Made by a program: the position numbers and the translations under genes. Below are positions 1 through 34,343 of a stretch of DNA of 34,343 nucleotides, in pieces (the stretch's first letter is position 1; the number at the start of each line of letters is the position of its first letter). This stretch comes from a virus. Location of the stretch: the UHGV virus genome UHGV-0071249. One strand, 5' to 3'. Under the pieces are notes generated by a model. That model was not told the DNA's origin. It did not search any database and saw only the letters and a list, made by a program, of their open reading frames with translations.

Positions 1-93
1 TTAACGGGCATTGGGTCCGCTTCCAGCACGGTTTTTGCATGATAATCATACAAATGTGTTATGCTTATACAAACAAAAACTAGAAGGTTGCCA

Positions 94-1914
94 ATGAAAA
101 AAGTCTTTGTGTATCATCGAGTTAGTTCCGATCAGCAGCTCGACGGGTCAGGCATCGCACGCCAAGCAGAACTGCTTGAAGCATACCTTAAACGTACTAA
201 CATTCTCGCTGAGATGGATGATCCAGAGCCTGTAATCATCACCGAGTCGGGCGGGGTGAGTGCCTTCAAAGGACACAATATGCTAATCACTTCTGGCTTA
301 GGTGCATGGATGCAAGAAGTACGTGCAGCTATGTGGGATGGTTCTCACCTCGTGTACGAGAACGGCGATAGATTTTCTAGGCAGAATCCTTTTACGGTGA
401 TTGGATACATCAACGACTTAATCAATCACAATATAACGATTCACGATGCAACTATGAATATTATCATTAGTCGTCAAAATAGTGCGATGTTGCCTATGGT
501 TTTGATGAATGCACAACGGGCATATGATGAATCTAAGTATAAAAGTGATCGTATACGTAAAGGCTGGGCGAAGAAACGCGAACAAGCATTTAACAAAGGT
601 ACTATTGTAACTAATAAACGTCCTCAATGGATCGAAGTAGAAAAAGATAAGTATGTACTTAATGAGAAAGCGGCAGTAGTTAAAGAGATTTTTGCTCTTT
701 ATCAAACTGGCATGGGATGTCCTACGATTGCTAAAAAACTTCAAGGGAAAGAAGGTGAGCAATATAAATTTAATCGTCCGTGGACTGGTGAACTTGTTCA
801 TAAGATTCTTACTAATCGCCGTGTAACTGGTAAGATTTTCATTTCAGAAACCATCCGTAACCATGCTGATATTGAAAATCCAGTAACTCAGAAAAAGTAC
901 GATATGGACGTGTACCCTGTAGTGATTAATGAAGAAGAATTTGAATTAGTACAGGAATTACTAAAGTCTCGTCGTCCTAATGCTGGACGTGTTACCGTGA
1001 AGAAAGACGGACAGGAAGAAGTACTGATTAAAAGTAATTTGTTTAGTGGTATCGCACGTTGTACTGAATGCGGCGGGCCAATGTATCATAATGTGGTTCG
1101 TGCTAAACGTACACCAAAGAAAGGCGATCCAAAAATTGAGGAATATAGATATATTCGTTGCCTCAATGAACGTGATGGACTTTGTGAAAACAAAGCTATG
1201 ACCTATGAAACGGTAGAACGTTTTGTAGTAGAACATTTGTTAGGAATGGATCTTATTACTGTAATGAAAGAACAGGAATTTAATCCTGAAATAGAAGTAT
1301 TACGTATCCAGATTGATCAAGTAAAAGAACAAATCACTAACTATGAAAATGGTATCGAACGTCGTAAAAGTGCTGGTAAAATTATAACTTTTGATATGCG
1401 TGAAGATCTCGATGATGCTAAATCAGAGTTAGAGAGATTGTTAGCACGACAGGCTTCATTAGCTACAGTACAAGTAGATGTAGCAGTACTACAGGATGTT
1501 AACGTTACTGAATTGTATAATGTGAATAACGTAGATATACGTACACGTTATGAGAATGAACTTAACAAGATTGTTTCTACTATTCGTCTAAAGCGTAATG
1601 GTACATCTTACACTATTGATATTAGCTATAAACAGAACGAGCTAAAAAGACATGTACTTTTTGTTGAGAATAAGAAGAAGGAACAAACGTTAATCAGTGA
1701 GGTTATCATTGAAGATGTAGATGGTGGTAAGTTCTACTATACCCCTTCATTCATGATCCGGCTTGAAGATGGTGAAATCCGTTTTCAGCATACTAACGAA
1801 GATCTTTCAATCGTTGATTATTCGCTATTGCTGAACTATGTAGATGCTGTAGATCGGAATGATACCGTAGGTGTTTGGATGCGTAATCAATTCAATTTTC
1901 TTACGTCTAACTAA
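94..1914 (+). CDS. Large serine recombinase (phage integrase)
   Basis: N-terminal resolvase-type catalytic region (VYHRVSSDQQ... with the serine nucleophile context), internal Cys-rich zinc-ribbon-like segment (CTECGG...C...C), long C-terminal extension. Start moved to ATG 94 (MKKVFVYHRVSS) because it has a GAAGG ribosome-binding site; the ORF-track ATG at 61 has none. Confidence 0.85.
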   Translation: MKKVFVYHRVSSDQQLDGSGIARQAELLEAYLKRTNILAEMDDPEPVIITESGGVSAFKGHNMLITSGLGAWMQEVRAAMWDGSHLVYENGDRFSRQNPFTVIGYINDLINHNITIHDATMNIIISRQNSAMLPMVLMNAQRAYDESKYKSDRIRKGWAKKREQAFNKGTIVTNKRPQWIEVEKDKYVLNEKAAVVKEIFALYQTGMGCPTIAKKLQGKEGEQYKFNRPWTGELVHKILTNRRVTGKIFISETIRNHADIENPVTQKKYDMDVYPVVINEEEFELVQELLKSRRPNAGRVTVKKDGQEEVLIKSNLFSGIARCTECGGPMYHNVVRAKRTPKKGDPKIEEYRYIRCLNERDGLCENKAMTYETVERFVVEHLLGMDLITVMKEQEFNPEIEVLRIQIDQVKEQITNYENGIERRKSAGKIITFDMREDLDDAKSELERLLARQASLATVQVDVAVLQDVNVTELYNVNNVDIRTRYENELNKIVSTIRLKRNGTSYTIDISYKQNELKRHVLFVENKKKEQTLISEVIIEDVDGGKFYYTPSFMIRLEDGEIRFQHTNEDLSIVDYSLLLNYVDAVDRNDTVGVWMRNQFNFLTSN

Positions 1915-2278
1915 TCACCGCATTTGAACGTGTTTTTGATGGTTCTCCACTAAATATCTCTAGGTTCATTACTTGGAGATATTAATCGTGTTAGATTGGG
2001 TAATTACTTCTGCTGGAGCTACATCATCGGATTTATCATTTTGGTAACGGGGTTTATCAAGTACGTGTTACTTGGATGGATTCTGTACCTACTAATTATG
2101 GTAGTTTTATGGGTTATCGCCCGTATTTGGCTATGATTCCGAAAACAAAATACTAAATAGATATGTAGCAAGTGACATTACTACACAAAGATCTTCGAAA
2201 TTTGGGACGTTTCAAAATAATATGATATAATATAGCTATCGAAGATAAATATTTCCATAATCTCCAATGATATTTTAG

Positions 2279-2303
2279 CCCTATGGCAATCATAGGGTTT
2301 TTC
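2279..2303 (+). terminator. Intrinsic terminator-like hairpin (CCCTATG-GCAAT-CATAGGG followed by TTTTTC)
   Basis: 7-bp perfect stem, 5-nt loop and T-run read directly from the sequence; lies about 50 bp upstream of the ribbon-helix-helix gene. Confidence 0.4.
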
Positions 2304-2351
2304 TTTGGATTTGGGAAAGCATAAAAAGAATTCTTTTCAAAAGGAGAAAAC

Positions 2352-2504
2352 ATGAAGGAATTGAAATCACATCCTGTGAGCGTAAAACTAAATGATACTC
2401 AAGTAAAGCTACTTGAAAAACTAATACAAGAAGGAAAAGCGAAAACTAAAGCAAGTGCGATACAGTACCTAATCAATCAGTACTCAATACTAAAAAGTAA
2501 GTAA
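2352..2504 (+). CDS. Ribbon-helix-helix (CopG/Arc/MetJ-like) DNA-binding protein, 50 aa; absent from the ORF track
   Basis: ATG at 2352 preceded by AAGGAG (2341-2346); translation MKELKSHPVSVKLNDTQVKLLEKLIQEGKAKTKASAIQYLINQYSILKSK has the beta-strand/helix/helix pattern of ribbon-helix-helix regulators; stop TAA at 2502-2504. Confidence 0.6.
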   Translation: MKELKSHPVSVKLNDTQVKLLEKLIQEGKAKTKASAIQYLINQYSILKSK

Positions 2505-2591
2505 TAAACAACGTTTGATACTATCGTAAAAAGTATTATCTCTTTGTACTGGCAAGGAATGCCAAGTACAAAATATCATGGATGAACCACA

Positions 2592-3083
2592 ATGAAAAAA
2601 ATAAATGACCTAAAAGGCCAGGTATATCTACACCTATATAAAGAAGCACTACAGAAATGGCATAGTATGCATTCAAGACTAAAACGCATTGGTTATCAAA
2701 ACACAACTATTTGTGATGAATGGTATACTTTCAGTAACTACTACAACTGGTACATAGAAAATAGTATTAGTGGTTGGGATGTAGATAAGGATATATTAGG
2801 AGCTAACCACTATTCACCAAACACTTGTATGTTCGTACCACACGAAGTAAATCAATTATTCAGAGGTGGTTACGGTAAACATAAGAAGGGAGTACAGAAG
2901 GTTTTCAATAGTTGGGTAGCTAAATCAACTTACAACGGTGTACAGGAGTATTACGGTACATTCAAAACAGAAGATGAAGCACACCAGGCATATCTTACAC
3001 ATCGCCGTATTTGTATAGTGAATCTAGCAACTAAGTATAGTAACTATCCAGTGCTTAGTATAGCACTACTAAACAGCAAGTAA
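2592..3083 (+). CDS. HNH_3-like / AP2-domain DNA-binding protein (homing-endonuclease-like, HNH probably degenerate)
   Basis: Segment DKDILGANHYSPNTCMFVPHEVNQ resembles the phage HNH_3 core but lacks the first catalytic His; C-terminal GVQKVFNSWVAKSTYNGVQEYYGTFKTEDEAHQAY matches the AP2 DNA-binding consensus. Confidence 0.5.
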   Translation: MKKINDLKGQVYLHLYKEALQKWHSMHSRLKRIGYQNTTICDEWYTFSNYYNWYIENSISGWDVDKDILGANHYSPNTCMFVPHEVNQLFRGGYGKHKKGVQKVFNSWVAKSTYNGVQEYYGTFKTEDEAHQAYLTHRRICIVNLATKYSNYPVLSIALLNSK

Positions 3084-3090
3084 TAAAAAA

Positions 3091-3119
3091 AGGCACTTGG
3101 TCTTACTCACCAAGTGCCT
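3091..3119. terminator. Hairpin terminator (10-bp stem AGGCACTTGG / CCAAGTGCCT) flanked by an A-run and AT-rich tail
   Basis: Perfect inverted repeat 3091-3100 / 3110-3119 immediately after the stop at 3083; A6 upstream and AATTAATT downstream, so it could act in either direction. Confidence 0.5.
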
Positions 3120-3151
3120 AATTAATTAACATCATTTATAAGGTATTTATC

Positions 3152-3637
3152 ATGGCAAACATAGAGAAACCACACGATAACCGTGTAGTACAGAAAGAAG
3201 TAAAAAACATCAAATTCAAAGAACTATCACATGAAGCAGTGGAGGCAATCAATGAGGCTATACAGGGATGTAAATCACTTGGACGTAATAAAGTAGACTC
3301 ACAAGAAATTTATGAAGTTATTCGTAAGTGTGACTACATTACAAGAGCTAATACTCTGTACACTATAAACATTATGCGTAGTACGGGGGCTATCACCAAA
3401 TCACAACTACAGGGTAAATCACAGGAGGATAAGTATAAGACTGTCTCTAAGCTCGTTTCACAGGCTCTAGAGCTACTAATAGTACTGGGCATTCCCCTAA
3501 AAGGTTCAATGAAGCGTGTCGTAAATCAGGTAGCAGGTAAGCAACTGGACGAGCAGCAGCAAAAGGTGTTAGAGGAAAAAGTGAAATCAGGCGTCCCGAT
3601 TAACGATCTAATCAAGTATCTATCGGGATTAATCTAA
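3152..3637 (+). CDS. Hypothetical early protein (161 aa)
   Basis: ORF with AAGG ribosome-binding site 8 nt upstream; no family recognised. Confidence 0.65.
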   Translation: MANIEKPHDNRVVQKEVKNIKFKELSHEAVEAINEAIQGCKSLGRNKVDSQEIYEVIRKCDYITRANTLYTINIMRSTGAITKSQLQGKSQEDKYKTVSKLVSQALELLIVLGIPLKGSMKRVVNQVAGKQLDEQQQKVLEEKVKSGVPINDLIKYLSGLI

Positions 3638-3642
3638 AAGCA

Positions 3643-3719
3643 TTAGCACATAATAGCCCAGACATATGTGCTAATTATGGGCTAATGGGTTAATGATGTA
3701 TGGGCTAATGGGTTAATGA
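3643..3719. repeat. Inverted repeat (TTAGCACATA / TATGTGCTAA) followed by two tandem copies of a 21-bp unit TATGGGCTAATGGGTTAATGA
   Basis: Inverted repeat at 3643-3652 / 3665-3674; tandem units at 3676-3696 and 3699-3719; the loop motif TAGCCCA is the reverse complement of TGGGCTA inside each unit. Confidence 0.6.
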
Positions 3720-3887
3720 AACACTACATATAGTGTCTAATCCATTGTTTTATTGGTATATTTTGTGGTTTTTTAGTAATTGTATGGGGAGTTGTGGCAT
3801 TAGCCCCCCTTATATTAATATTATTCTTTCATTCTTACTTTGAAAGTATATTTGTCTTACTTATATCTAGTCTCTAGAGAGCCTAAC

Positions 3888-3996
3888 TTCGCTTTGCTCG
3901 TTAGTCTCTGTAAAAACCAAATATAAGATCGTAACTTTGCGTTTTTCTCGCTATCGCGTCGAAAACTCGCAAGCGTTTTTCTCGCTTTGCTCGTAC
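3888..3996. repeat. Iteron-like direct repeats (GCGTTTTTCTCGCT twice; CGCTTTGCTCGT twice) in a non-coding region
   Basis: Direct repeats at about 3938/3973 and 3890/3983, read from the sequence; the overlapping minus-strand ORF 3857-4102 is judged spurious. Confidence 0.4.
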
Positions 3997-4251
3997 TTGT
4001 CAGTACTGTCAAAGTAACAAAACCCCAATAGCTACTACCAAAGTAATTAATCAAAGTATTCGTGAGTCGCCACGGAGTCACGCCCGAACGAGCCACCCGC
4101 ACACACCGGCCAAGTCGGATTATTGCTTAAGTAGTCATGGCAGTATAACGAATGCAACGGTACTTAATGAAATACTTGATAAGAAGGCCGATTTATATCA
4201 GAAACTGTTACCATATGCGGTATCGACATAATTCCTATGTACTACGATGAA

Positions 4252-4965
4252 CTATACATAAAATAATTCTTGGAATTTATATGTTCTAATTTTTTCATGG
4301 ATACATTTTCCTTGATAATAAGAGGAAAGAGCTTCGCCATAATTTACTTTGAAATGATGCCCAAAGAGTGCGAAATATCTTTCATCATTTATAAATTCAG
4401 ATAATGCATTTCTTAGGTTAAAAGTAGCATTCGATAAAGACATAATTGTCATTTGATAAGTATCAAGCAGTTGATATATTTCCTTTTCCTTTAGTATTGT
4501 CACATCCCAACGTTTTAATGATGAAAATTTAGAATGCGTATCCTGCAATCTCAATTTGTTATTTTCAATTAATACTCGTAACTCATCAAGTGATTTTATT
4601 ACTCTATTCCTGTCTGCTTGATTGTCAAAGATGTTAGATCGATAGTAGATTTCAGCTTCAGCTAAACTATCTATATAAGAGTTATGGGTGGCAGAAAAAG
4701 TATCAATTTCATTAAGTATAGCTTCAGCTTTTTCCAAACCTAATGTTCGTGTTTTTTCTGATAACCAATTTTTTGCATTAACAGCGGCATATAATGCCGC
4801 CCCGGCCATTATAGCATTACAAAATGTGGATACCCAATCGGAGACACTACCCCATTCAAACCCCTTACTGCCAGAAAATAAAAATTTAACAAGCACCAGT
4901 ATTGCTACCCATAAGAGTATAAGAACAGTAAAAATCAATGCGGTATTATATTGTTTAACTTTCAT
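4252..4965 (-). CDS. Two-TM membrane protein, paralogue A (candidate superinfection-exclusion or abortive-infection protein)
   Basis: N-terminal hydrophobic helix (ALIFTVLILLWVAILVLV), second helix AIMAGAALYAAVNAKNWLSEK, then about 170 aa with coiled-coil character; antisense to the phage operons; paralogous to 32551-33258. Confidence 0.65.
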   Translation of the reverse strand: MKVKQYNTALIFTVLILLWVAILVLVKFLFSGSKGFEWGSVSDWVSTFCNAIMAGAALYAAVNAKNWLSEKTRTLGLEKAEAILNEIDTFSATHNSYIDSLAEAEIYYRSNIFDNQADRNRVIKSLDELRVLIENNKLRLQDTHSKFSSLKRWDVTILKEKEIYQLLDTYQMTIMSLSNATFNLRNALSEFINDERYFALFGHHFKVNYGEALSSYYQGKCIHEKIRTYKFQELFYV

Positions 4966-5175
4966 TTGTTTAAACTTTCAATAAAGGATTTTTACGGGCA
5001 TTCTACCATTTTGTGATTGGATTAGTAACTGTTGTTTGAAGGTTATCATTATCATAACTTAACTTAGGGTTAAGTGCTGCTAAAATTAAATCAGAAATTT
5101 TATGCGGTTTTATTTCCCATTTATGTCAAAATTGATAGTAGTATGGGGAGTCTATACAAAAAGTAGGGATTACTG

Positions 5176-5622
5176 ATGGATACAGTAGAAGAACTTAATG
5201 GAACATACTTCTATGATGGTTCATCCAATCTTAGTGCAGGGGAGCTATTCTTCTGGATCATGGTTGATGAAACATTAGATCACTTTGGTATATCAGACAT
5301 AGCCGCAGTTGCAGGGATCTACCTTGGTTCGAATAATGTCACGGTAGCAGGTAAGCTGGCAGGGGCAACACCCGGCACATCCGTTGTGTCAATCTATTCC
5401 AGGGAATTATTCAGAGGACGAATGATGCCAGTACGAATGGCAACTTGGATTGGATTCCCGCCAAATGCAAAACGAGTTATGACACAGCGATTGGGTACAT
5501 TCGTTGGCAGGACTATTCCTCTTGTCGGTTGGATTGTACTCGCAGCAGACGTTTCTATCATCAGTTTCAAAGCAGTCAATAAGTACAATACAATCGCCCA
5601 TCCTTCAGATCGTCTATGGTAG
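5176..5622 (+). CDS. Small protein with two glycine-zipper-like hydrophobic segments (148 aa); candidate Hcp-associated cargo
   Basis: Segments DIAAVAGIYLGSNNVTVAGKLAGATPG and TIPLVGWIVLAADVSIISF; first gene of a tight three-gene set ending in Hcp. Confidence 0.55.
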   Translation: MDTVEELNGTYFYDGSSNLSAGELFFWIMVDETLDHFGISDIAAVAGIYLGSNNVTVAGKLAGATPGTSVVSIYSRELFRGRMMPVRMATWIGFPPNAKRVMTQRLGTFVGRTIPLVGWIVLAADVSIISFKAVNKYNTIAHPSDRLW

Positions 5623-5629
5623 GTACTGA

Positions 5630-5986
5630 ATGAACGATTCAGATAACATAGAGCAGCAGGTCATGAATTGGTATAACGAGAACTGGAATGGGCGTGTTTT
5701 TCCATTTTTCAGGAAGCCATCATTGACGCTGGAAACAAGCCTATCAACAGGCAAGTATCCTTGGGCAGATGAAGATGCGATAGAGATACTTGATGATTAC
5801 TTTGGGAAGTTCAATGTTGAGCGTAAAAATTTCACATTTGGCAAGTACTGGCCCAATGAAGAAGTAGTACTTCCATTGAATTTTTTACGATCAAAAGATA
5901 ATAAATGGGAATGGATTGAACCAGAACCATTAACACTCAAAATGCTTGTCGAATCAGCTAAGGCTGGTCGCTGGCTTTACGATTAA
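5630..5986 (+). CDS. Small acidic Trp-rich protein (118 aa); candidate immunity or adaptor protein
   Basis: Starts 7 bp after the previous stop; W-rich (NWYNENWNG, KYPWADED, KWEWIEPEP); no family assigned with confidence. Confidence 0.55.
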   Translation: MNDSDNIEQQVMNWYNENWNGRVFPFFRKPSLTLETSLSTGKYPWADEDAIEILDDYFGKFNVERKNFTFGKYWPNEEVVLPLNFLRSKDNKWEWIEPEPLTLKMLVESAKAGRWLYD

Positions 5987-5998
5987 AAGGAGTTTTCA

Positions 5999-6484
5999 AT
6001 GGCAATCCCCGCACACTTATGGCTTAAAGATGATGGTGGAGCATTAATTAAGGGATCATGCGATGTAATGGATCGAGAGGGAAGTGTGGAAATTATTGGT
6101 TTCGGTCATGGCCTACATATTCCTACCGATAATAATACTGGTAAAATTACTGGAACTCGAATCCATACACCGATGGTATTAGAAAAGGAATTTGATAGCT
6201 CTACACCGTATCTCTATAAAGCAGTTGCTACAGGGCAATCGCTTAAAAGTGCCGAAATTAAATGGTACAAGATTAATGATGCAGGCCAGGAAGTAGAGTA
6301 CTTCAATATGCTTCTTGAAGGTGTCAAAGTCGTTGCTGTAACCCCGATAATGTACAATACAAAGACCGTTGAAAAATGTAACCACATGGAGCGTGTAGAA
6401 TTACGCTACGAAAGAATTACATGGAAGTACTGTGACGGTAATATCCAGTATACTGATGCGTGGAATGAACGAGCGACAGCATAG
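5999..6484 (+). CDS. hcp: Hcp (TssD) family type VI secretion tube / effector-chaperone protein
   Basis: 161 aa; N-terminus MAIPAHLWLKDDGG...IKGS.DV.DREGS and later segments (TGK.TGTR.H.P, PYLYKAV.TGQ.LKSAE.KWY.INDAGQEVEYF, LRYE.ITW, WNER) match my recollection of enterobacterial Hcp1 sequences; perfect AAAAGGAG ribosome-binding site 6 nt upstream. Confidence 0.75.
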   Translation: MAIPAHLWLKDDGGALIKGSCDVMDREGSVEIIGFGHGLHIPTDNNTGKITGTRIHTPMVLEKEFDSSTPYLYKAVATGQSLKSAEIKWYKINDAGQEVEYFNMLLEGVKVVAVTPIMYNTKTVEKCNHMERVELRYERITWKYCDGNIQYTDAWNERATA

Positions 6485-6486
6485 TT

Positions 6487-6509
6487 AAAAGGGGCATGTA
6501 CCCCCTTAA
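6487..6509. terminator. Hairpin (AAGGGG-CATGTAC-CCCCTT) between the convergent hcp and 4-TM genes
   Basis: Stem-loop read from the sequence; TTTT follows 3 nt downstream on the plus strand; overlaps the stop codon of the minus-strand gene. Confidence 0.45.
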
Positions 6510-7195
6510 CTTTTATGGCTTTCGTATGTTGGCTCTCGAAATTTAAATATGTGATGTTTCTTACCCATCGAAATAAATTCCTGCGATACTGTTTTACGAC
6601 AAGAAAATACAGTAATAGGAACTGATAGAGAATAAATCACAGTGGAGAGTAATACTATGAGAGGGTAGTGAGAACTAATTAAAATAAGAGACGTAATGAA
6701 ACAAGCAAGCCATAGCATAATCATAAAAGCACTAAGGAATGTGTTTATATTAGAAACCGAGGGACGAAGGTCGTTTATGGTTTTATAGAAAAGCACTTTA
6801 TATAAATTCCCTGTAACATAATATTCTAATTTATCAATTACTAACTCCCAGTTTTCTTGCCAATATTTGCTACCGATATTCACATAATAGAAGCATATTG
6901 AAAATACGGTTCCAATTATTGATATGAATGGTGTATAGGTGATATATTCCGTATGTGTGAAAAGATAACCATAGGCAGCAGTTATAACTGTGAAAAAAGC
7001 AAAAAAATAAGTTGCTCGCTTCCAGTACAAATCAATCTCAAATTTTCTTATATCATGAGCTTTATCCAGTGCGGCTATTAGTTTTTTATGATCTAAAGAA
7101 TCTTCCATAATAATTGTACTGACACCCAAGAATTCTTGGAAAAATTCTTTATCCTCATCTTTTATTACAAATGGTTCTTTTTTTGTATTATCCAT
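6506..7195 (-). CDS. Integral membrane protein with about four TM helices (229 aa), function unknown; candidate immunity or defence effector
   Basis: Soluble N-terminal 60 aa, then hydrophobic helices (FFAFFTVITAAYGYLF; FISIIGTVFSICFYYV; FLSAFMIMLWLACFITSLILI; LIVLLSTVIYSLSVPITVF) with a YWQENWE linker; convergent with hcp. Confidence 0.6.
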   Translation of the reverse strand: MDNTKKEPFVIKDEDKEFFQEFLGVSTIIMEDSLDHKKLIAALDKAHDIRKFEIDLYWKRATYFFAFFTVITAAYGYLFTHTEYITYTPFISIIGTVFSICFYYVNIGSKYWQENWELVIDKLEYYVTGNLYKVLFYKTINDLRPSVSNINTFLSAFMIMLWLACFITSLILISSHYPLIVLLSTVIYSLSVPITVFSCRKTVSQEFISMGKKHHIFKFREPTYESHKS

Positions 7196-8164
7196 AATTT
7201 ATTCTTACAAGATAAAAGGCCAGTATACAATCAGATTTCACTCTCTGTATACTACGCGAAAGTACTCCCCCTTGCTAATGGGTAGGTTTGTTGGGTGTAA
7301 GGGGGTAGTACTCAAAACGGCAGTTCTTCTTGTCCACAAAATCAACCATCTTCATGAAGCCTTGAAATTTCCCTCACCAGATAAGTTAACCCTTCCAGTA
7401 CTGAAGCGATCGGGTACTCCATGATCAAGTAGAAGCAACCTCGCTGAACTGTACCGAATCAGTACTTCCTTTGTCCATTCTGGAAGAAAACACGATCACC
7501 AAATGCAAACTTGTCCAGTACTGAACCGTAGTAACAAACCCTGAATTCACGCTCGCCGTGGGTGAAGGTTTGTACCCCTCGGACGATTGCTGGATCGTAG
7601 CCATTTTTACTCATTTGATGCTCACCATAGGTGTAATGAATATGCATACAGCACGCCTATGTGTTTTTAAAAATCCAGCAAATCACAATCTATCGATAAA
7701 ACTGTTCAAAAATGCATTGAATGATCTATAAAAGTGATCAATATTGATGACTTACGGTCAAATGAGGTCATTAAATGAACATCCAGTACTGGGCTGTACC
7801 GATTACGACTCTTAATGGGCAGTTGCTCGGAGTGGAAATCCAGCCGCAGATAGAAATACACGGCTGTCGGCTCATTGCTGGGGATGTACTGAAGTGGCAA
7901 CTACACGTAACGGAGTGAAGTATTACCGGCCTCAGTTCCAGAGTGATTGCGGTCGCATCTATAATCCAATCTACCAGATGGACAATGGCAGTACTACGTG
8001 TCTAATACGCGAGGAAAGGATTCAAGAATGTATTAATATAGCTAAACAATTATTGAGGTCAAATCATTAATTGATTAAATATATTGGTCATGGTAAAAAT
8101 AATTGAATTACATATGATATCCTCATGCTACTGGTGCTAATAACATAGCATGAGGATATATACT

Positions 8165-9286
8165 TCAACGCACCATGGCTAATGTTCTGGAAATTCGCAT
8201 GATTTCTTTTTCAATATCATCTAAAACAGGTAGTGATTTTCTGCTTCGTTCAGCAATTTCTTGCAATATATATCTGTTCAAATAATTGTTTACATTTTTA
8301 GGATCAAGATTTTCAGGTGTGGGAACAACACAACATTGCCAATAAAAAATCTCATCTTCGAAATGAGTTAGCCATTTGGAGTGATATCTTTCTTTCGATT
8401 TTTTCTTATTAAGCACATAAATGCTGGCTGCAGCTATCACATCAGCAATTTGTATACCATGCGTGACTTTAGAATCAGAAAGGATTATGGGCTCAGATAG
8501 TTTGAATGTGATCGGGATTTTTTTATTATTAAAGGTCTCGAACACAATTTCATCATTACCTATCATCTCATTGAATGCGTCTTGTTGGGTAATTAATGGT
8601 TTTGAACTATCACATATAGCTCTCAATGTACCAAACTTACTACTCATATCGCATAAGAGATTATAAAGAGAAGTCGTTGTCAAATCTAACAACCATTTAT
8701 CAACCCCAGTGCCCTCGAGACCTTCATATTCCTCTTCAATTATTGAAATGTTATGCTTGGCGAAATCATGAATGTCCATCATAATTTCAGAGTTTTTAGT
8801 ACCAATAACTGGTTCGATAAAACTATTAACTAATATTTTACCTCGTGAAAAATCTTCAAATCGAGAATGCAATAGTTCAGAATACTCATCCTTAGCTATT
8901 AAAGAAAAATACATTATATTGGATATGAATAGGTGGAATTTAAGGTTGTAAAATATTGAGCTTTTAGCTGCTAATACTGGCTCGAAAATATATTCAAAGA
9001 ATTTTCCTGAAAGGGCATATTTCTTTTCGTTAACAACCACACGCATACGTCCACGGAAATGATTAAGTATCTCATCTACGGCTGGTTGTAATCTCTTGCT
9101 ATTAACGAGAGTGCTACCTTTTAGCTCTTCGGCTGCGATCGAGTACTTTTGTATTATGTAATCTACAAACTGTTTACTTTCCTCTTCATCAGTCACGACT
9201 GCAGCGTAACTAAAAAAAGGCTGATCTTTTGAAAGTAAGTTATTACCTGTAAACCCTGATTCGTCGAAGTAGACATTTTTTACCAA
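8165..9286 (-). CDS. DUF3800-like protein (373 aa), antisense cargo gene immediately upstream of the late operon
   Basis: N-terminal VYFDESG and C-terminal GIQIADVIA motifs, which I recall as the two signature motifs of DUF3800; TTG start with GAAGGA ribosome-binding site about 9 nt upstream. Confidence 0.6.
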   Translation of the reverse strand: MVKNVYFDESGFTGNNLLSKDQPFFSYAAVVTDEEESKQFVDYIIQKYSIAAEELKGSTLVNSKRLQPAVDEILNHFRGRMRVVVNEKKYALSGKFFEYIFEPVLAAKSSIFYNLKFHLFISNIMYFSLIAKDEYSELLHSRFEDFSRGKILVNSFIEPVIGTKNSEIMMDIHDFAKHNISIIEEEYEGLEGTGVDKWLLDLTTTSLYNLLCDMSSKFGTLRAICDSSKPLITQQDAFNEMIGNDEIVFETFNNKKIPITFKLSEPIILSDSKVTHGIQIADVIAAASIYVLNKKKSKERYHSKWLTHFEDEIFYWQCCVVPTPENLDPKNVNNYLNRYILQEIAERSRKSLPVLDDIEKEIMRISRTLAMVR

Positions 9287-9495
9287 TTTGGATATTCCTT
9301 CTTGAACGGCAATGTGTATGTGCTTGCAATGTTACATTGTAATAATGATCAAGTAAAATGAAATGTAAGTGCTTTTAATCAACCTAATTAAGTGAAACTA
9401 ATAATTTAGGTACTCCTCCAGCCTGATTATCAACGCGAGTTTTCGGCACCGATTGCTTTCAATTGTATGTGACATTTTAGATGTACACAAAACAT

Positions 9496-15901
<6,406 letters not shown>

Positions 15902-16641: not shown

Positions 16642-18324
16642 ATGTCATTCTTAACTAACTACACAACAGTGTGGATTAATACTAACACACTTAATACCGA
16701 TCCAAATTCAAAAGCATTTGAACAAGTTGAAAAGCTGGCTTCATTTCCAGTAGTAGGTGCTACCACACAAGTTACTTCAATTGAACCATATAATTCTACA
16801 TTTATGGCTAAAGAAGTTGGTGATATGTCTCATAATGACGTAACGATCACCGTTAATTGGGTTCCATCCGTACACCAATTTCTAGATGATTTAGTATCTT
16901 CTGGTGAAGAAGTTCAGATGAAAATTGAAATGCCAGATGAAGGTGCAGATGATACTACCGTTCCATATGCAATGTATAACGGTGTTCTTACATCTACATC
17001 AACTGCTGGTAGTTATGATAATGTAGTAACTAAAACATATACCTTTGCACCAACTGCATTAGTAAGTGCTGGTATACTTGATGAAACTACAGTACCGCTA
17101 AACCGTGGTGATTATGGCGTTGGCTCTAATGGAACTACTTTCCCAAGCTGGCAAGAACGCGACGGTAACGGATTTATTAAGATTCCATCTACTACTTCAC
17201 CAACTGGTACTGATGTTCTAGGTATTAATAATCTTGATACAAACTTTGGTACTCAATTAGTAATTAGTAAAACTGGTACACCAATTATAAACGTCCGTAA
17301 CTACGGAACATCTATGGGTGCATGGTACAAAGTCTATACAAGTGCAGATAAACCAACACTAACAGAACTTGGTGCAGCCTCCAGTGCAAGCCTAGATAAC
17401 TATGTACTAAAAACACAGACAATAAACGGTAAACAGCTAACGGGGAATATTACCCTTGTAGCCGCAGATATCTCTGATGTGTACTCACAAACTTATATCA
17501 CTAATACATTTGTTCCAAAAGTATTTCAGTTAAATGGTCATGCACTATCTGGTACTTCATTAAACTTGGTTGCGGCAGATATTTTAGATGTGTACTCACA
17601 GACACAAACTAATACTAACTTTGTTGCAAAGACTCAGACGATTAACGGCGTGGCATTAAGTGGGAATATTACACTAGGTGCAGCACAACTAACCGATATG
17701 GCAAGTCTAAGCTATAGTAACAGTACTTTTGTACCTAAAACATTCTTAGTGAATAACAAGGCACTTACTGGTACTAACATTCAACTTGTAGCCGCAGATA
17801 TTTCAGATGTGTACTCACGTACCCAATCAAATGATCTATTTGCACTACGTATCACCCGTATTAATGGCTATGCCCTAAACAGTGATATTACTTTGAACTA
17901 TGATGATGTTGGAACATATTCAAAGAAACAAATTGATGATAAAGACAAGGTATTACAAGCCAATATTGATACAAAAGTAACAATTGTAGATGATCTATTA
18001 GCACTAAATACACTCACAGGCACTAGCCTAGAGATTGATTTATCAGATAGTAAGACTGCATTCACTGTTACACTATCAGCAGGAACAACTAATTTTACCA
18101 TTGTTAACGCAAGTGGTAATAGTAAGAATACTCAATCTTTCACTGTAGCTATGAAACAAGGCACAGGGGCAAATAAAATATCATGGCCTGATTCAATTTT
18201 ATGGTCTTATGGGCGTGTACCAGTACTGACATTTACGAAAGATTCAACAGATGTATTCCAGTTTGTTTCTTATGATGGTGGTAGTACGTGGTTCGGCTCC
18301 TTACTAATGGCAGATCTACACTAA
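16642..18324 (+). CDS. Tail protein with an N-terminal tail-tube-like domain and C-terminal phage tail-fibre repeats
   Basis: Residues about 20-140 align with the 156-aa tube protein at 21200-21670 (VEK[VL]A[AS]FP, TVNW[IV]P, TAG.[FY]D, YTF); then four copies of a roughly 38-aa repeat (TQTINGK.LTGNITLVAADISDVYSQT). Confidence 0.65.
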   Translation: MSFLTNYTTVWINTNTLNTDPNSKAFEQVEKLASFPVVGATTQVTSIEPYNSTFMAKEVGDMSHNDVTITVNWVPSVHQFLDDLVSSGEEVQMKIEMPDEGADDTTVPYAMYNGVLTSTSTAGSYDNVVTKTYTFAPTALVSAGILDETTVPLNRGDYGVGSNGTTFPSWQERDGNGFIKIPSTTSPTGTDVLGINNLDTNFGTQLVISKTGTPIINVRNYGTSMGAWYKVYTSADKPTLTELGAASSASLDNYVLKTQTINGKQLTGNITLVAADISDVYSQTYITNTFVPKVFQLNGHALSGTSLNLVAADILDVYSQTQTNTNFVAKTQTINGVALSGNITLGAAQLTDMASLSYSNSTFVPKTFLVNNKALTGTNIQLVAADISDVYSRTQSNDLFALRITRINGYALNSDITLNYDDVGTYSKKQIDDKDKVLQANIDTKVTIVDDLLALNTLTGTSLEIDLSDSKTAFTVTLSAGTTNFTIVNASGNSKNTQSFTVAMKQGTGANKISWPDSILWSYGRVPVLTFTKDSTDVFQFVSYDGGSTWFGSLLMADLH

Positions 18325-21146
18325 TGATTAGAAAACACAATTTAGATAACGCGTATCAAATGGTAGAGGGGCAATTTAAGTTCCTCGCCAGAAACACCGG
18401 ACTAACAACCGATAATAAAACTCAGCACTATGTTTTAAATCCAGATAATGTACTTGCAAACAATAGACACTTTATCGCACAAACTCAGTGGGAAGCACAA
18501 CCAGATGGTGATGCAACTACCGAAGGACAATCCCTACAAATACTAGGTGCTATTCACTGCTACCAAGCAACTAAAGAACCATACTATCTAGAGAAAGCAA
18601 AAGAATATTTTGATGCATATCATTTAGCATTCTATCGTGGTGTACCATTTCCAGATCCACCAAGTACGGCATTACGTTGTAATTGGATTTGTAATGGTAA
18701 GGCTCCAGTACTGGCAAACTACCCACTAGATCCCGAATATCCGACACATGGCGGCTTTAAAGGGGTGTTATTCAATTGGGTAAATGGACAAACTAAGATA
18801 CCTTCTGGTGCTCCAAACTATGGTGAGTACTTGGACGCTGTATGGTTCGCCTTTCCAGAACGTGCATCACTAGGTTGGAACCAAGTTAACGCAACTGCAT
18901 ATATGTGGTTAGAAGACGGTACAACTGATTGGAAGACCAAAGCACCAACTTATGATGTAGATTGGATTATCGACCGTACAGGCCGCAAGGTTGACAGTAA
19001 CGGTGATGTACTGGAACAGGGAATAACAAGCCAGATCGGTACAGTACAGCTTAAAGATACTTCTATTAATGGTAATTACCGTTTCAACTATGCAACACGT
19101 AACCCCGTAGAACATAGCGGTTATATGTTTAAACGTAATGAACGTTGGCACAACCGCCCGGTAAACGTACCAATTGATAATTACGGTAGTCTTGATTTCG
19201 CTGATAATGCATCAGATGCTGAATTGTGGTTCTGTCTTGCATCTAAAATGCTATGGGATATTACAGGGGAACGTAAACACTATCTAGCGTGGCAGTGTTC
19301 ACTACTTACTTGTTATGGTTATTCAGATATTGATAGATTTGATATGTTCTTCCGTAAGAGTACAATTGCAACAACGCCATTCACTGATGGTATTTCATAT
19401 GATTATTTCTACCCAAGTGATCGAATTGCAACTTATTCACGTGATGCCGAAGGTTATATTGTAATTAATCAAAGTGCATCAGCACAGACTACCCTAGAAC
19501 AACAATCAATTTGGTTTAAGTTTAATAATAACTCAAAATTCCATATTGAATGTGGCGGTGTTGATACTACTGGTGTAGCTCTAGGACTCGCTGTTAAAAT
19601 GACAGTGAATAAGACGAAAGTAGAAGAGGGTTCAACACTATACCGTTGCGGTATTCCAAATACTAACCCAAATGGTTCTATTACGGTAATGGATGTACCA
19701 ATGAATCACTTTACCCGTGTTAAACGTCCTGATGGTGGTGAATACCTAACCGCAGATATGCGTAATGTCTCTGATTATGGTTCTAATACTGTCACTAGGT
19801 TTGAGTATGTATCTGGAATAGCTGGTAAGTACTATGACAACGTAATCACCAGTACTATGGATGGTGACGGCGGGATGGTTGTAGGATTCTATATCTATGA
19901 CGATGAGAGACAAGATTTAAAATCATTCACCTATCGTACATATAATGATGACTTTAACTTACGTGTTACCGATCCAGATGGTTGGAGATGGTGGACTATG
20001 TTACCTGCTAGTGGTGGTGAATGGGTAACTAAAGATTTAACGCAGTTAGATTTTAAACTAAACAGTTATCAACCAAACCACGTAGAAGGCGATGAGCAGC
20101 CCGCAGCAGTGACATTAACACAACTAGAGGACTTTACCTTACTATTAGATGATGACCCGATAGACGGCGTTTCAGGGCGTATAGATTGGTACTGTATAAA
20201 CGATCTACCAGAACTATATAACGATGGCGGTACTGGTGACTATTCTGTACTAGTTAATTTAACATTCAATGACAGTACTGATAGTGGTTATACGGCACGT
20301 CTTGGTAACTGTACTATCAGAGACTATATGTTAGATAGCCTTGCATATACTCCCGGTCTAATACCGTTCAGTAACATTACAGATCCATATGCACAGTTAT
20401 ATTCTGGCTGGCGTGGTCTTCCGTATCCGGGCTACCAATTACCTACAGTATGGTGTTTTAAAGGAACTACTATTGATACAGTAAGACTAAATAATAGTAT
20501 CAAGTTCTTATGTGATTCACAGGACGGGTTTACTAATAAATTTCATCCTACTGTACCAGGTCCATGTGCTCAGGCGTTTGTATGGAACCGTCAGGACGCA
20601 TTAGCGTACTTACCAGCAGGTGAGAAAGTAGATACATTCATTATGGATCACTGGTATTCAGAGGCTTGGTCTGGTTATGAACCACGTGCATTCTATGCAG
20701 GATGTAACGTAGTATATGAATTATGGTCACGTGGTGATTATGCAATCCCCTCTAATATAATTCAGTACTGTAAAAACTGGATGAATTACTTGAAATGGTT
20801 TATGAAAAATAATGATGGTCATGCACCAACACGTTTCAAAAACAATGGTGAAGTAATTTATGATGGATTTACCCCTCATATGTCAGGACTATGGTTAGCA
20901 GGTGCTTGTTCTATGGCAATTGCTGGTTATCCAGATGATGAGTTAATACAAATGTTGTTTGATGAAGTACAAAGTTATTATGAGGTAATCACGTCAAATC
21001 ATGTAATGAATGGTACGTGGGCAGCCGCTATACGTTCTGGTACTCCAACTACGGCAGAAAACAATAGTATGTTCTTTGGCTTTTATAGCGGGGAAGTACT
21101 AAGAGGATTAGGACTATATATAGAGTACTACAATCTTCATAAATAA
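18324..21146 (+). CDS. Large tail-associated protein (940 aa), possibly an enzymatic (glycoside-hydrolase-like) tailspike or fibre
   Basis: TAATG-coupled ATG at 18324; N-terminal region (QSLQILGAIHCYQATKEPYYLEKAKEYFDAYHLAF) is reminiscent of alpha/alpha-toroid glycosidases; lies between the fibre-repeat gene and the tube gene. Confidence 0.5.
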   Translation: MIRKHNLDNAYQMVEGQFKFLARNTGLTTDNKTQHYVLNPDNVLANNRHFIAQTQWEAQPDGDATTEGQSLQILGAIHCYQATKEPYYLEKAKEYFDAYHLAFYRGVPFPDPPSTALRCNWICNGKAPVLANYPLDPEYPTHGGFKGVLFNWVNGQTKIPSGAPNYGEYLDAVWFAFPERASLGWNQVNATAYMWLEDGTTDWKTKAPTYDVDWIIDRTGRKVDSNGDVLEQGITSQIGTVQLKDTSINGNYRFNYATRNPVEHSGYMFKRNERWHNRPVNVPIDNYGSLDFADNASDAELWFCLASKMLWDITGERKHYLAWQCSLLTCYGYSDIDRFDMFFRKSTIATTPFTDGISYDYFYPSDRIATYSRDAEGYIVINQSASAQTTLEQQSIWFKFNNNSKFHIECGGVDTTGVALGLAVKMTVNKTKVEEGSTLYRCGIPNTNPNGSITVMDVPMNHFTRVKRPDGGEYLTADMRNVSDYGSNTVTRFEYVSGIAGKYYDNVITSTMDGDGGMVVGFYIYDDERQDLKSFTYRTYNDDFNLRVTDPDGWRWWTMLPASGGEWVTKDLTQLDFKLNSYQPNHVEGDEQPAAVTLTQLEDFTLLLDDDPIDGVSGRIDWYCINDLPELYNDGGTGDYSVLVNLTFNDSTDSGYTARLGNCTIRDYMLDSLAYTPGLIPFSNITDPYAQLYSGWRGLPYPGYQLPTVWCFKGTTIDTVRLNNSIKFLCDSQDGFTNKFHPTVPGPCAQAFVWNRQDALAYLPAGEKVDTFIMDHWYSEAWSGYEPRAFYAGCNVVYELWSRGDYAIPSNIIQYCKNWMNYLKWFMKNNDGHAPTRFKNNGEVIYDGFTPHMSGLWLAGACSMAIAGYPDDELIQMLFDEVQSYYEVITSNHVMNGTWAAAIRSGTPTTAENNSMFFGFYSGEVLRGLGLYIEYYNLHK

Positions 21147-33285: not shown

Positions 33286-34128
33286 TTAAACCAGTTCTTG
33301 TGTTATTACTGTTTCGAAGTAATGATTTACTACATCAGCTATACCAGTTTCAGTATTGTTACCTATTACTAAATCAGCACAGGCTTTTACTTCATCAACC
33401 GCGTTACCCATAGCAACACCCAAGCCAGCATTTTTCAACATGCTTAGATCGTTGTAATTATCACCAAAGGCTATTACCTGGCTCATAGATAAACCTTGTG
33501 ATTCTACCCATTGTGCCAGGCGTTTACCCTTACTGTTTCCGGCTTGTGCTATGTCTACTTGATCGTGCCAAGACCATTCGCAAGCAAGGCCAAGCTCACG
33601 CTCTACTATCTGACCAAAGCTATGTAGTTTTTCAGTATCAGAATCAGTAAGGGCGAATTTCCAGATAGCATCAACATTTTGCGATGCTTCACTAAGAGAG
33701 GGTACTTGTTTGAAGATTGGACGTTGTGACTCTGGAAGAGACTTAGCCCAATTTTCTGTACGGATAATATGCCCCGTTGGTTCTTGATAGAACATGACAT
33801 CATCGGCATACATCAGACTATGAACATTGTAACTATCAAGTAGGTTCACTAATTGAATAGCTTGTTCTGGTTGTAATGGGTCTGAGGCAATAACTCTTTT
33901 TTCGGCGTAATCGTACAATAAAGCACCATTACAACATATAGCTGGTGTATTAAGTTCTAATGCCTGATAAAAAGGATGGATGGCTACAAAGTGCCGTCCG
34001 GTAACTATGACAACCTTTGCCCCTGATTTACGGGCATTCTGTAGGGCAGATAGTGAGGCTGGTAAGATAGTTTTTTCTGGCGTCAATAAAGTGCCGTCCA
34101 GATCAAGGGCGATTACCTGATAGTTCAT
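33286..34128 (-). CDS. Host Cof-type HAD-superfamily (HAD-IIB) sugar/phosphate phosphatase
   Basis: MNYQVIALDLDGTLL (DxDGT motif I), VIVTGRH, and C-terminal GDNYNDLSMLKNAGLGVAMGNA (motif IV); AGGTGA ribosome-binding site before ATG 34128; more G+C-rich than the prophage. Confidence 0.8.
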   Translation of the reverse strand: MNYQVIALDLDGTLLTPEKTILPASLSALQNARKSGAKVVIVTGRHFVAIHPFYQALELNTPAICCNGALLYDYAEKRVIASDPLQPEQAIQLVNLLDSYNVHSLMYADDVMFYQEPTGHIIRTENWAKSLPESQRPIFKQVPSLSEASQNVDAIWKFALTDSDTEKLHSFGQIVERELGLACEWSWHDQVDIAQAGNSKGKRLAQWVESQGLSMSQVIAFGDNYNDLSMLKNAGLGVAMGNAVDEVKACADLVIGNNTETGIADVVNHYFETVITQELV

Positions 34129-34343
34129 GTAGTGATTCACCTGATTTTGGTATGTAGTTTCCTCGATAGTACACCGCTTTGCGGCTACGACGAAACAAGG
34201 TGAAGAGTCTTGTTGAGCACTGGAACAGCGTTGGATACTGGCGTATTGCCTTGGATGGGCGTAAATATTGTAATTAGCAATACACACTCAAATAGGTGCC
34301 ATTACAGCAAATAGCAGGTGTATCCAGCGCCAGCGCCTGATAA

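Follow-up and report, generated by a model that had tools for sequence, protein, structure and literature searches.

Why would a temperate phage carry the gene of a secretion-system tube? The question is raised by UHGV virus genome UHGV-0071249 (34,343 nucleotides; this whole stretch is hereafter called the window), essentially the whole prophage of a temperate Escherichia coli phage, in whose accessory region a gene for Hcp (TssD), the inner-tube subunit of a type VI secretion system (T6SS), is the last of three plus-strand open reading frames (ORFs). As described in the first-pass annotation of this DNA, they form a tight set, with gaps of 7 and 12 bp:

5176-5622, plus strand: 148-aa protein of the STM2901 family/DUF8209 (NF045926, PF26636), putative cargo effector
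5630-5986, plus strand: 118-aa DUF1493 protein (PF07377), putative cognate immunity protein
5999-6484, plus strand: 161-aa Hcp (TssD) of the enteroaggregative E. coli (EAEC) Sci-1 type (PF05638, TIGR03344, 4HKH)

The first-pass annotation had proposed that the phage brings along, as T6SS cargo, an orphan Hcp together with a small effector and the matching immunity protein, and the comparative evidence presented below largely supports this proposal. The cassette can be read, with fair though by no means full confidence, as an Hcp-carried cargo toxin and its cytosolic immunity protein, packaged with their own tube subunit on a temperate phage; lysogeny would then probably re-arm the host, and protect it, in bacterial warfare.

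By profile search and comparison with a solved structure, gene 3 is a genuine T6SS Hcp. The 161-aa protein matched PF05638 with an expect value (E) of 2.2e-31 (109.3 bits, cut-off 23.5) and the NCBIfam model TIGR03344 with E=6.2e-44 (149.8 bits, cut-off 58.9), and its residues 1-161 aligned with residues 1-163 of 4HKH, the solved EAEC Sci-1 Hcp1, at 71.4% identity (E=1.4e-73). Hcp is homologous to phage tail tubes, and it serves as chaperone and carrier for small effectors. The alternative that the 161-aa protein is a phage tail tube was rejected on three grounds: i) no tail-tube family was matched among PHROGs, where the best and sole match was phrog_27303 of unknown function (8.5e-6); ii) the Hcp models were far stronger; iii) the phage has a lambda-type tail-tube protein of its own (Phage_TTP_12 domain) at 16642-18324. 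Thus the bona fide Hcp announced by the first-pass annotation stands, as does the statement that the window holds no other T6SS gene: none was found among the proteins scanned, some small ORFs having been left unscanned. On a neighbour-joining tree, the sister group of the window Hcp clade was made up of Hcps that belong to core T6SS clusters of E. coli TUM1881, Yersinia and Rahnella.

Gene 1 is, judged from its homologues, a member of a polymorphic-toxin C-terminal domain family, the window copy being the stand-alone form and itself no Rhs protein. The 148-aa protein matched the NCBIfam model NF045926 ('STM2901 family') with E=1.5e-52, and PF26636 (DUF8209) is recorded both for it and for its relatives. 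A DUF8209 profile search of 1.84 billion protein representatives returned 551 matches, and the best 150 of these were inspected. Thirty-five of the best 150 were longer proteins (190-612 aa) in which the domain, present from about profile position 10 to 143, ended at most 7 residues from the C-terminus. In at least 14 of the 35 fusions the domain was preceded by the Rhs core-end motif (YDPxxGRF...DP...DPxG), variants of the motif being visible by eye in several more, and in one single protein (P0285) RHS repeats identified by Pfam (RHS_repeat), a YD-shell and PF26636 were all present. This position at the tip of Rhs proteins therefore suggests an exported interbacterial toxin and not the toxin of a toxin-antitoxin (TA) system. 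Apart from a conserved N-terminus (MDTVEELNG) that is absent from the fusions, the window protein is nothing but the domain. Moreover five residues (S69, S72, R112, G118 and D125) were invariant in 61 stand-alone and fused copies; four of the five are polar, and S69, S72, R112 and D125 are candidate functional residues.

The first-pass annotation had also credited the 148-aa protein with glycine-zipper-like hydrophobic stretches, as in membrane-targeting small toxins. One strongly hydrophobic stretch does exist (residues 113-131, Kyte-Doolittle 1.89) and is the only one, but the GxxxGxxxG pattern (G59xxxG63xxxG67) lies in a polar loop that was modelled with low confidence, within an AlphaFold model that was itself of moderate quality (predicted local distance difference test, pLDDT, 72.7). 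The membrane-toxin idea is thus weak, also because the DUF1493 partner is cytosolic. Among the Rhs fusions, P0217, P0254 and P0310 had long Gly-rich hydrophobic linkers with many GxxxG repeats between the core-end motif and the toxin domain; these linkers could serve for entry through the membrane, and this would agree with a toxin domain that acts in the cytoplasm.

Gene 2 probably encodes the immunity protein cognate to DUF8209, as gene order and co-divergence suggest. The 118-aa protein matched PF07377 (DUF1493) with E=2.7e-24, was predicted to be helical with no hydrophobic segment (AlphaFold2 pLDDT 88.2), and is indeed acidic and Trp-rich, as had been noted earlier (isoelectric point 4.72; seven Trp, 5.9%). 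The pairing of the two families is obligate: in 159 of the 160 loci fetched, DUF1493 came directly 3' of DUF8209, the stop codon of one gene usually overlapping the start codon of the next, and the two proteins co-evolve (Mantel r=0.91 for their co-divergence). DUF1493 was the fastest-evolving of the three proteins, its copies being on average 37% identical to that of the window, versus 54% for the toxin. Frameshifted or truncated toxin genes were accompanied by an intact DUF1493 gene in about eight copies, while the reverse was seen once, small numbers that are suggestive; extra orphan copies of DUF1493 also exist, and no second candidate immunity gene was conserved beside the pair. In an unrelated genome, the stop codon of an Rhs-end fragment with DUF8209 (P0252) was overlapped by a gene that hit DUF1493; therefore the partnership holds across different delivery carriers. 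A fold like that of acyl carrier proteins was considered for DUF1493 and is suggestive at most, as the best Foldseek match of its model in the PDB (9cwt_G, template modelling score 0.51, E=4.8) was not significant and a profile search of the PDB returned no acyl carrier protein.

Is the Hcp gene a functional companion of this pair, or only its neighbour in one phage? The pair occurred in 304 species-representative genomes, 116 viral contigs and 156 plasmid records, in Enterobacterales and Burkholderia, and genomic loci were compared for 80 species-representative genomes and 80 DUF8209-seeded viral loci. In 37 of the 80 species genomes, covering more than 20 genera, the next gene downstream of the pair encoded Hcp on the same strand, and the triplet moves as a unit since the flanks share almost no gene cluster besides the three genes. 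Together with upstream same-strand and convergent placements (the latter in loci L032 and L161), Hcp adjoined the pair in three forms and in about half of the species genomes. Three different adjacencies argue for a functional link and not for a chance neighbour. Hcp moreover co-diverged with the DUF8209-DUF1493 pair (r=0.66).

The pair was also found inside core T6SS clusters, confirmed by Pfam, in Yersinia frederiksenii, Yersinia massiliensis, Rahnella woolbedingensis and one metagenome-assembled genome, the gene order in all four being tssC-tssK-tssL-ompA-hcp-clpV-[pair]-vgrG...PAAR. In the Sci-1-type cluster of E. coli TUM1881, the equivalent slot was occupied by a gene whose annotation reads T6SS immunity lipoprotein. 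Residence between clpV and vgrG and recurrent Hcp adjacency tie the free-standing DUF8209 to the T6SS. Furthermore the window phage is not the only phage with such a cassette: on a P2-like phage contig (L190), the order Hcp (71% identical to that of the window)-DUF8209-DUF1493 was found between gpA and the portal gene, so that two unrelated phage types carry the three genes.

From these observations we infer a course of events for Hcp loading, secretion, toxicity, neutralisation, site of action and benefit to the phage. The cassette would be a self-contained T6SS 'cartridge', a moron of the temperate phage, with gene 1 encoding a 16-kDa toxin domain. Provided that the lysogen possesses a compatible T6SS of the Sci-1 type, the operon would be transcribed from its own promoter; in the producer cell the toxin would be bound and neutralised by DUF1493, and it would then be taken up into the lumen of the Hcp hexamer that the phage encodes, 16 kDa being within the size range reported for Hcp-lumen cargo. 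Loaded rings would stack into the tube and be fired into neighbouring cells, where, if DUF1493 is missing, the toxin would act either within the cytoplasm or on the membrane from its inner side. Lysogens and their siblings would be protected and would owe a competitive advantage to the prophage, while loss of the prophage would leave a sensitive cell, so that retention would be favoured. Hcp-free copies of the pair might use a resident Hcp, or might at least give immunity.

Several lines of evidence weigh against this T6SS cartridge: i) the pair came without Hcp in 77 of the 80 DUF8209-seeded viral loci, and in all three plasmid loci inspected (of the 156 plasmid records with a match); ii) at least 33 of the 80 viral loci had their Hcp-free copy in the gpA-gpQ hotspot of P2 and others had it in the fibre-sheath hotspot, and the plasmid copies adjoined Shedu, a HEPN nuclease, DUF4238 and classical TA genes; iii) Hcp was broken in 5 of 37 triplets whose pair was intact, and Hcp-linked and Hcp-free toxin genes were interleaved on the tree (about 12 switches, at up to 99% identity), and therefore an adjacent Hcp is dispensable for keeping the pair; iv) the model of the 148-aa protein resembled no known fold when compared with the PDB and BFVD, and its sequence had no profile match to solved structures; v) a cytosolic immunity protein misfits a toxin of membranes; vi) the searchable literature yielded nothing functional on DUF8209, STM2901 or DUF1493. 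To these is added the host. Among 5,426 complete E. coli genomes, the cassette was present in one, strain G3/10, in which blastn with the cassette and tssC as queries (sensitive to about 65% DNA identity or better) found no tssC and no second hcp, although a T6SS of a divergent class is possible. Thus the cassette can reside in a host that has no matching apparatus, and the check for a host T6SS suggested by the first-pass annotation spoke against a system in G3/10, the one complete genome of E. coli in which the cassette occurs, to the extent that divergent classes may escape blastn. Sci-1-type hcp or tssC was detected in about 1,380-1,500 of the 5,426 genomes.

Much of this would be expected if the pair were mainly an intracellular TA or abortive-infection module that serves prophages and plasmids for phage exclusion or addiction, with Hcp as a passenger or as a relic of recombination between armoury hotspots. 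The gpA-gpQ hotspot of P2 is a reservoir of anti-phage systems, and also holds partitioning and cdt genes (Rousset et al. 2022, PMC9122126); the plasmid neighbours named above are of the same kind; in Brenneria the pair sits in an island with HipA, RelE/MqsA and YjhX; the window cassette itself is flanked by 8xMP/RipA and DUF3800 genes; and the pair outlasts the decay of Hcp and persists in G3/10 with no detectable cognate T6SS. Against such a module, PADLOC-DB, at E<=0.01, matched none of the three proteins and none of the genes around them, and the supplements of the P2-hotspot paper (PMC9122126) make no mention of the pair. The domain forms the C-terminal tip of Rhs/YD proteins, as exported toxins do rather than TA toxins, and the pair takes the effector/immunity slot of core clusters between clpV and vgrG; the three configurations of Hcp adjacency and the co-divergence of Hcp with the pair likewise do not suit a passenger. 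The hotspots, too, carry cargo other than defence, and T6SS effectors are reported to share hotspots with defence systems as 'genomic armories' (bioRxiv 10.64898/2026.08.01.741415). We therefore hold a TA or abortive-infection module to be unlikely. A variant in which exclusion of other phages operates with no T6SS at all appears very improbable to us: in hosts such as G3/10, the Hcp ring would be an intracellular holder or sensor of the DUF8209 toxin. Given its homology to tail tubes, Hcp might join assemblies of the tail, sheath or other proteins that an infecting phage makes, or be pushed aside by them, upon which the toxin would be freed from DUF1493 and the infection aborted. This variant, a prophage exclusion system made of T6SS parts put to a new use, would explain the residence of the pair in defence hotspots.

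Two further readings concern the roles of single parts. DUF1493 might work in the cytosol as a chaperone or adaptor, preventing the partly hydrophobic DUF8209 protein from becoming insoluble and passing it to Hcp, immunity being encoded elsewhere, if anywhere. Its cytosolic, acidic and helical character would suit this role, as would the hydrophobic helix 113-131 of the effector, the weak likeness to acyl carrier protein (the non-significant 9cwt_G match), a divergent homologue (P0188) with a 'DLGIDELE' motif, and GenBank annotations that in some cases read 'acyl carrier protein'. However, fast evolution, retention when the toxin is disrupted and orphan copies are signatures of an immunity gene and not of an adaptor; DUF1493 also accompanies the Rhs-borne domain, which is delivered by another route; and the neighbourhood of the pair offers no other conserved candidate for immunity. 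We give the chaperone only a slim chance. About as doubtful is the proposal that the cassette in E. coli hosts is an inert or decaying passenger that came from another enterobacterium and stays idle for want of a compatible T6SS. The copy in G3/10 lies in a decayed prophage remnant broken up by insertion sequences IS1 and IS3, where no tssC was seen; only the minority of E. coli genomes counted above has Sci-1-type hcp or tssC; and the GC content of the cassette (about 40%) is well below the roughly 51% of the E. coli chromosome. On the other hand, all three ORFs are intact in both the window and G3/10, at 99.8-99.9% identity, and have good translation signals; the exact 148-aa protein was found in 615 blocks of the assembly index, and six intact prophage copies were retrieved; and a divergent T6SS class in the host could escape blastn.

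How far is the Hcp-carried toxin and its immunity protein a known kind of system? The three genes already have family names in RefSeq, and islands of hcp, effector and immunity gene are a known kind. Hcp-dependent small cargo and orphan islands of this type include Tse2 and Tse4 of Pseudomonas aeruginosa with Hcp1, and hcp-tae4-tai4 of Salmonella's pathogenicity island 6 (SPI-6). The window cassette resembles these islands in having a small effector free of a signal peptide, an hcp paralogue and a small immunity gene, outside a core cluster and in variable contexts; it differs in its uncharacterised DUF8209/DUF1493 proteins, in its order (effector-immunity-hcp), in its carrier (an intact temperate phage) and in that its Hcp dependence is putative. 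In Pantoea, DUF4225 effectors are encoded beside hcp (bioRxiv 10.64898/2026.08.01.741415); Pse7 and Pse15 of the same Pantoea secretome preprint belong to other families than the window proteins. A paper on a 'prophage-encoded fitness factor' was likewise set aside as a precedent, since it deals with MuF toxins and employed Hcp2 solely as a substrate.

With Rhs/YD polymorphic toxins the cassette shares the domain, which in its relatives takes the C-terminal toxin position after the core-end motif and has, in at least one copy, a DUF1493-hitting gene after it; unlike them, the window protein has no Rhs repeats, PAAR or other carrier domain. The pair pigA (STM2901) and pigB (STM2902) of Salmonella Typhimurium, located by SPI-1, is similar in consisting of adjacent small 'putative cytoplasmic proteins', and STM2901 gave the NCBIfam family its name, but no hcp is reported beside it and STM2903 is an insertion element. 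As to the cargo of the P2 gpA-gpQ site (old, tin, retrons, PARIS-type systems; PMC9122126), most phage-borne pairs and the Hcp-pair cassette of the P2-like contig lie in that same site, whereas the cargo described there is mostly anti-phage, plus partitioning and cdt genes, and includes no T6SS tube subunit with effector and immunity protein. In the literature searched, we found neither a description of DUF8209/DUF1493 as a toxin-immunity system with Rhs-fused and Hcp-linked forms, nor a bona fide hcp with cargo on intact phages of two types. Moreover, a search through 50,697 deposited phage records gave no close Hcp homologue, the best matches being 28-29% identical and on two unannotated contigs; therefore the phage-borne cartridge has probably been overlooked.

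If the preferred reading is true, DUF8209/STM2901 (pigA included) and DUF1493 would constitute a widespread toxin-immunity system that is delivered in two ways, as a free-standing protein with Hcp or as part of an Rhs fusion, and the five invariant residues would be a starting point for finding the toxin activity. At least two unrelated temperate phage types would carry a complete cartridge of tube subunit, cargo and immunity protein. Lysogeny would then alter what the host T6SS fires and whom it spares, tying the spread of the phage to kin discrimination and to retention of the prophage. The 'defence' hotspots of P2 would also hold offensive ammunition, which matters wherever cargo of unknown function in such hotspots is presumed to be anti-phage.

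Three sequence signals accompany the cassette:

5059-5086, plus strand: sigma-70 promoter-like site (TTAACT, 16 nt, TG-TAAAAT), a consensus match and candidate cassette promoter
5985-5992, plus strand: Shine-Dalgarno sequence AAAAGGAG of hcp, overlapping the stop codon of gene 2 and lying 6 nt 5' of the ATG
6489-6507, plus strand: stem-loop terminator-like site (AAGGGG-CATGTAC-CCCCTT with a T-rich tail) between hcp and the convergent 8xMP/RipA gene

Promoter-like sites were not in excess in the region (seven found, versus a mean of 6.1 in shuffled sequence), and no terminator-like site was found on the plus strand between the three genes. The predicted duplex of AAAAGGAG with the 3' end of 16S rRNA had a free energy of -8.2 kcal/mol, the strongest in the accessory island (2592-9286), so that the claim of the first-pass annotation that hcp has the best ribosome-binding site of the island was borne out; the gene of the terminase small subunit at 9531, outside the island, pairs more strongly (-10.3).

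Toxin genes of other types also lie beside hcp in related loci. A SymE-type toxin gene (PF08845, E=7.5e-19) is convergent to, and directly after, the hcp of the triplet in Pluralibacter, Raoultella planticola and Citrobacter braakii (L014, at 11455-11790 on the minus strand, L051 and L057). In the Sci-1-type cluster of E. coli TUM1881 (L173), a 'YoeB family toxin' gene lies at 18626-18961 between hcp and tssH; TA-like genes therefore also insert beside hcp. A divergent DUF8209-DUF1493 pair with 38% identity was seen at 6001-6785 of L177 (ON470584.1, 'Escherichia phage vB_EcoM-689R6, partial genome'), a record that extends past the integrase into the E. coli chromosomal genes icd, rluE, nudJ, mnmA and hflD. 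Since this pair lies between icd and rluE, within the chromosomal run, it is probably chromosomal and outside the phage.

Besides the cassette, the prophage carries genes for a large serine recombinase and for the terminase, portal, protease-capsid, lambda-type tail-tube domain protein, tail tip, lysozyme and holin. The accessory genes that flank the cassette lie on the opposite strand; they are listed here after the recombinase gene:

61-1914: large serine recombinase, a prophage gene
4252-4965, minus strand: protein of 237 aa, hydrophobic at the N-terminus, no family
6506-7195, minus strand: 8xMP/'RipA family octameric membrane protein' (PF24838, E=4e-29)
8165-9286, minus strand: DUF3800 protein (phrog_12991, E=5.6e-117)

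PADLOC gave no match for the three flanking genes and no literature was found on RipA/8xMP; these genes may serve exclusion or defence. The interval between the 8xMP and DUF3800 genes (7196-8164, about 970 bp) contained only ORFs of at most 64 aa and had no annotated gene in G3/10, and scans for Rfam families and tRNAs were blank there, as they were for the whole window. No DNA match of near identity to the cassette or to the 25-kb structural arm was found in the phage collection. The left arm of the prophage (window positions 1-12000) is AT-rich, with 31-43% GC per 600-bp window; compared with the GC content of E. coli, this would suggest a foreign origin of the phage or of its accessory genes.

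The prophage is inserted in ybhA, beside modABC of E. coli. The insertion cuts ybhA, which encodes a pyridoxal phosphate/fructose-1,6-bisphosphate phosphatase, into two fragments (18173-18790 and 34943-35164 of the G3/10 locus, L001). At its right end (33286-34287, minus strand) the prophage has a complete HAD-family phosphatase gene of its own (Hydrolase_3, E=8.8e-65; 'pyridoxal phosphatase' in RefSeq), which looks like a phage-borne stand-in for the disrupted ybhA.

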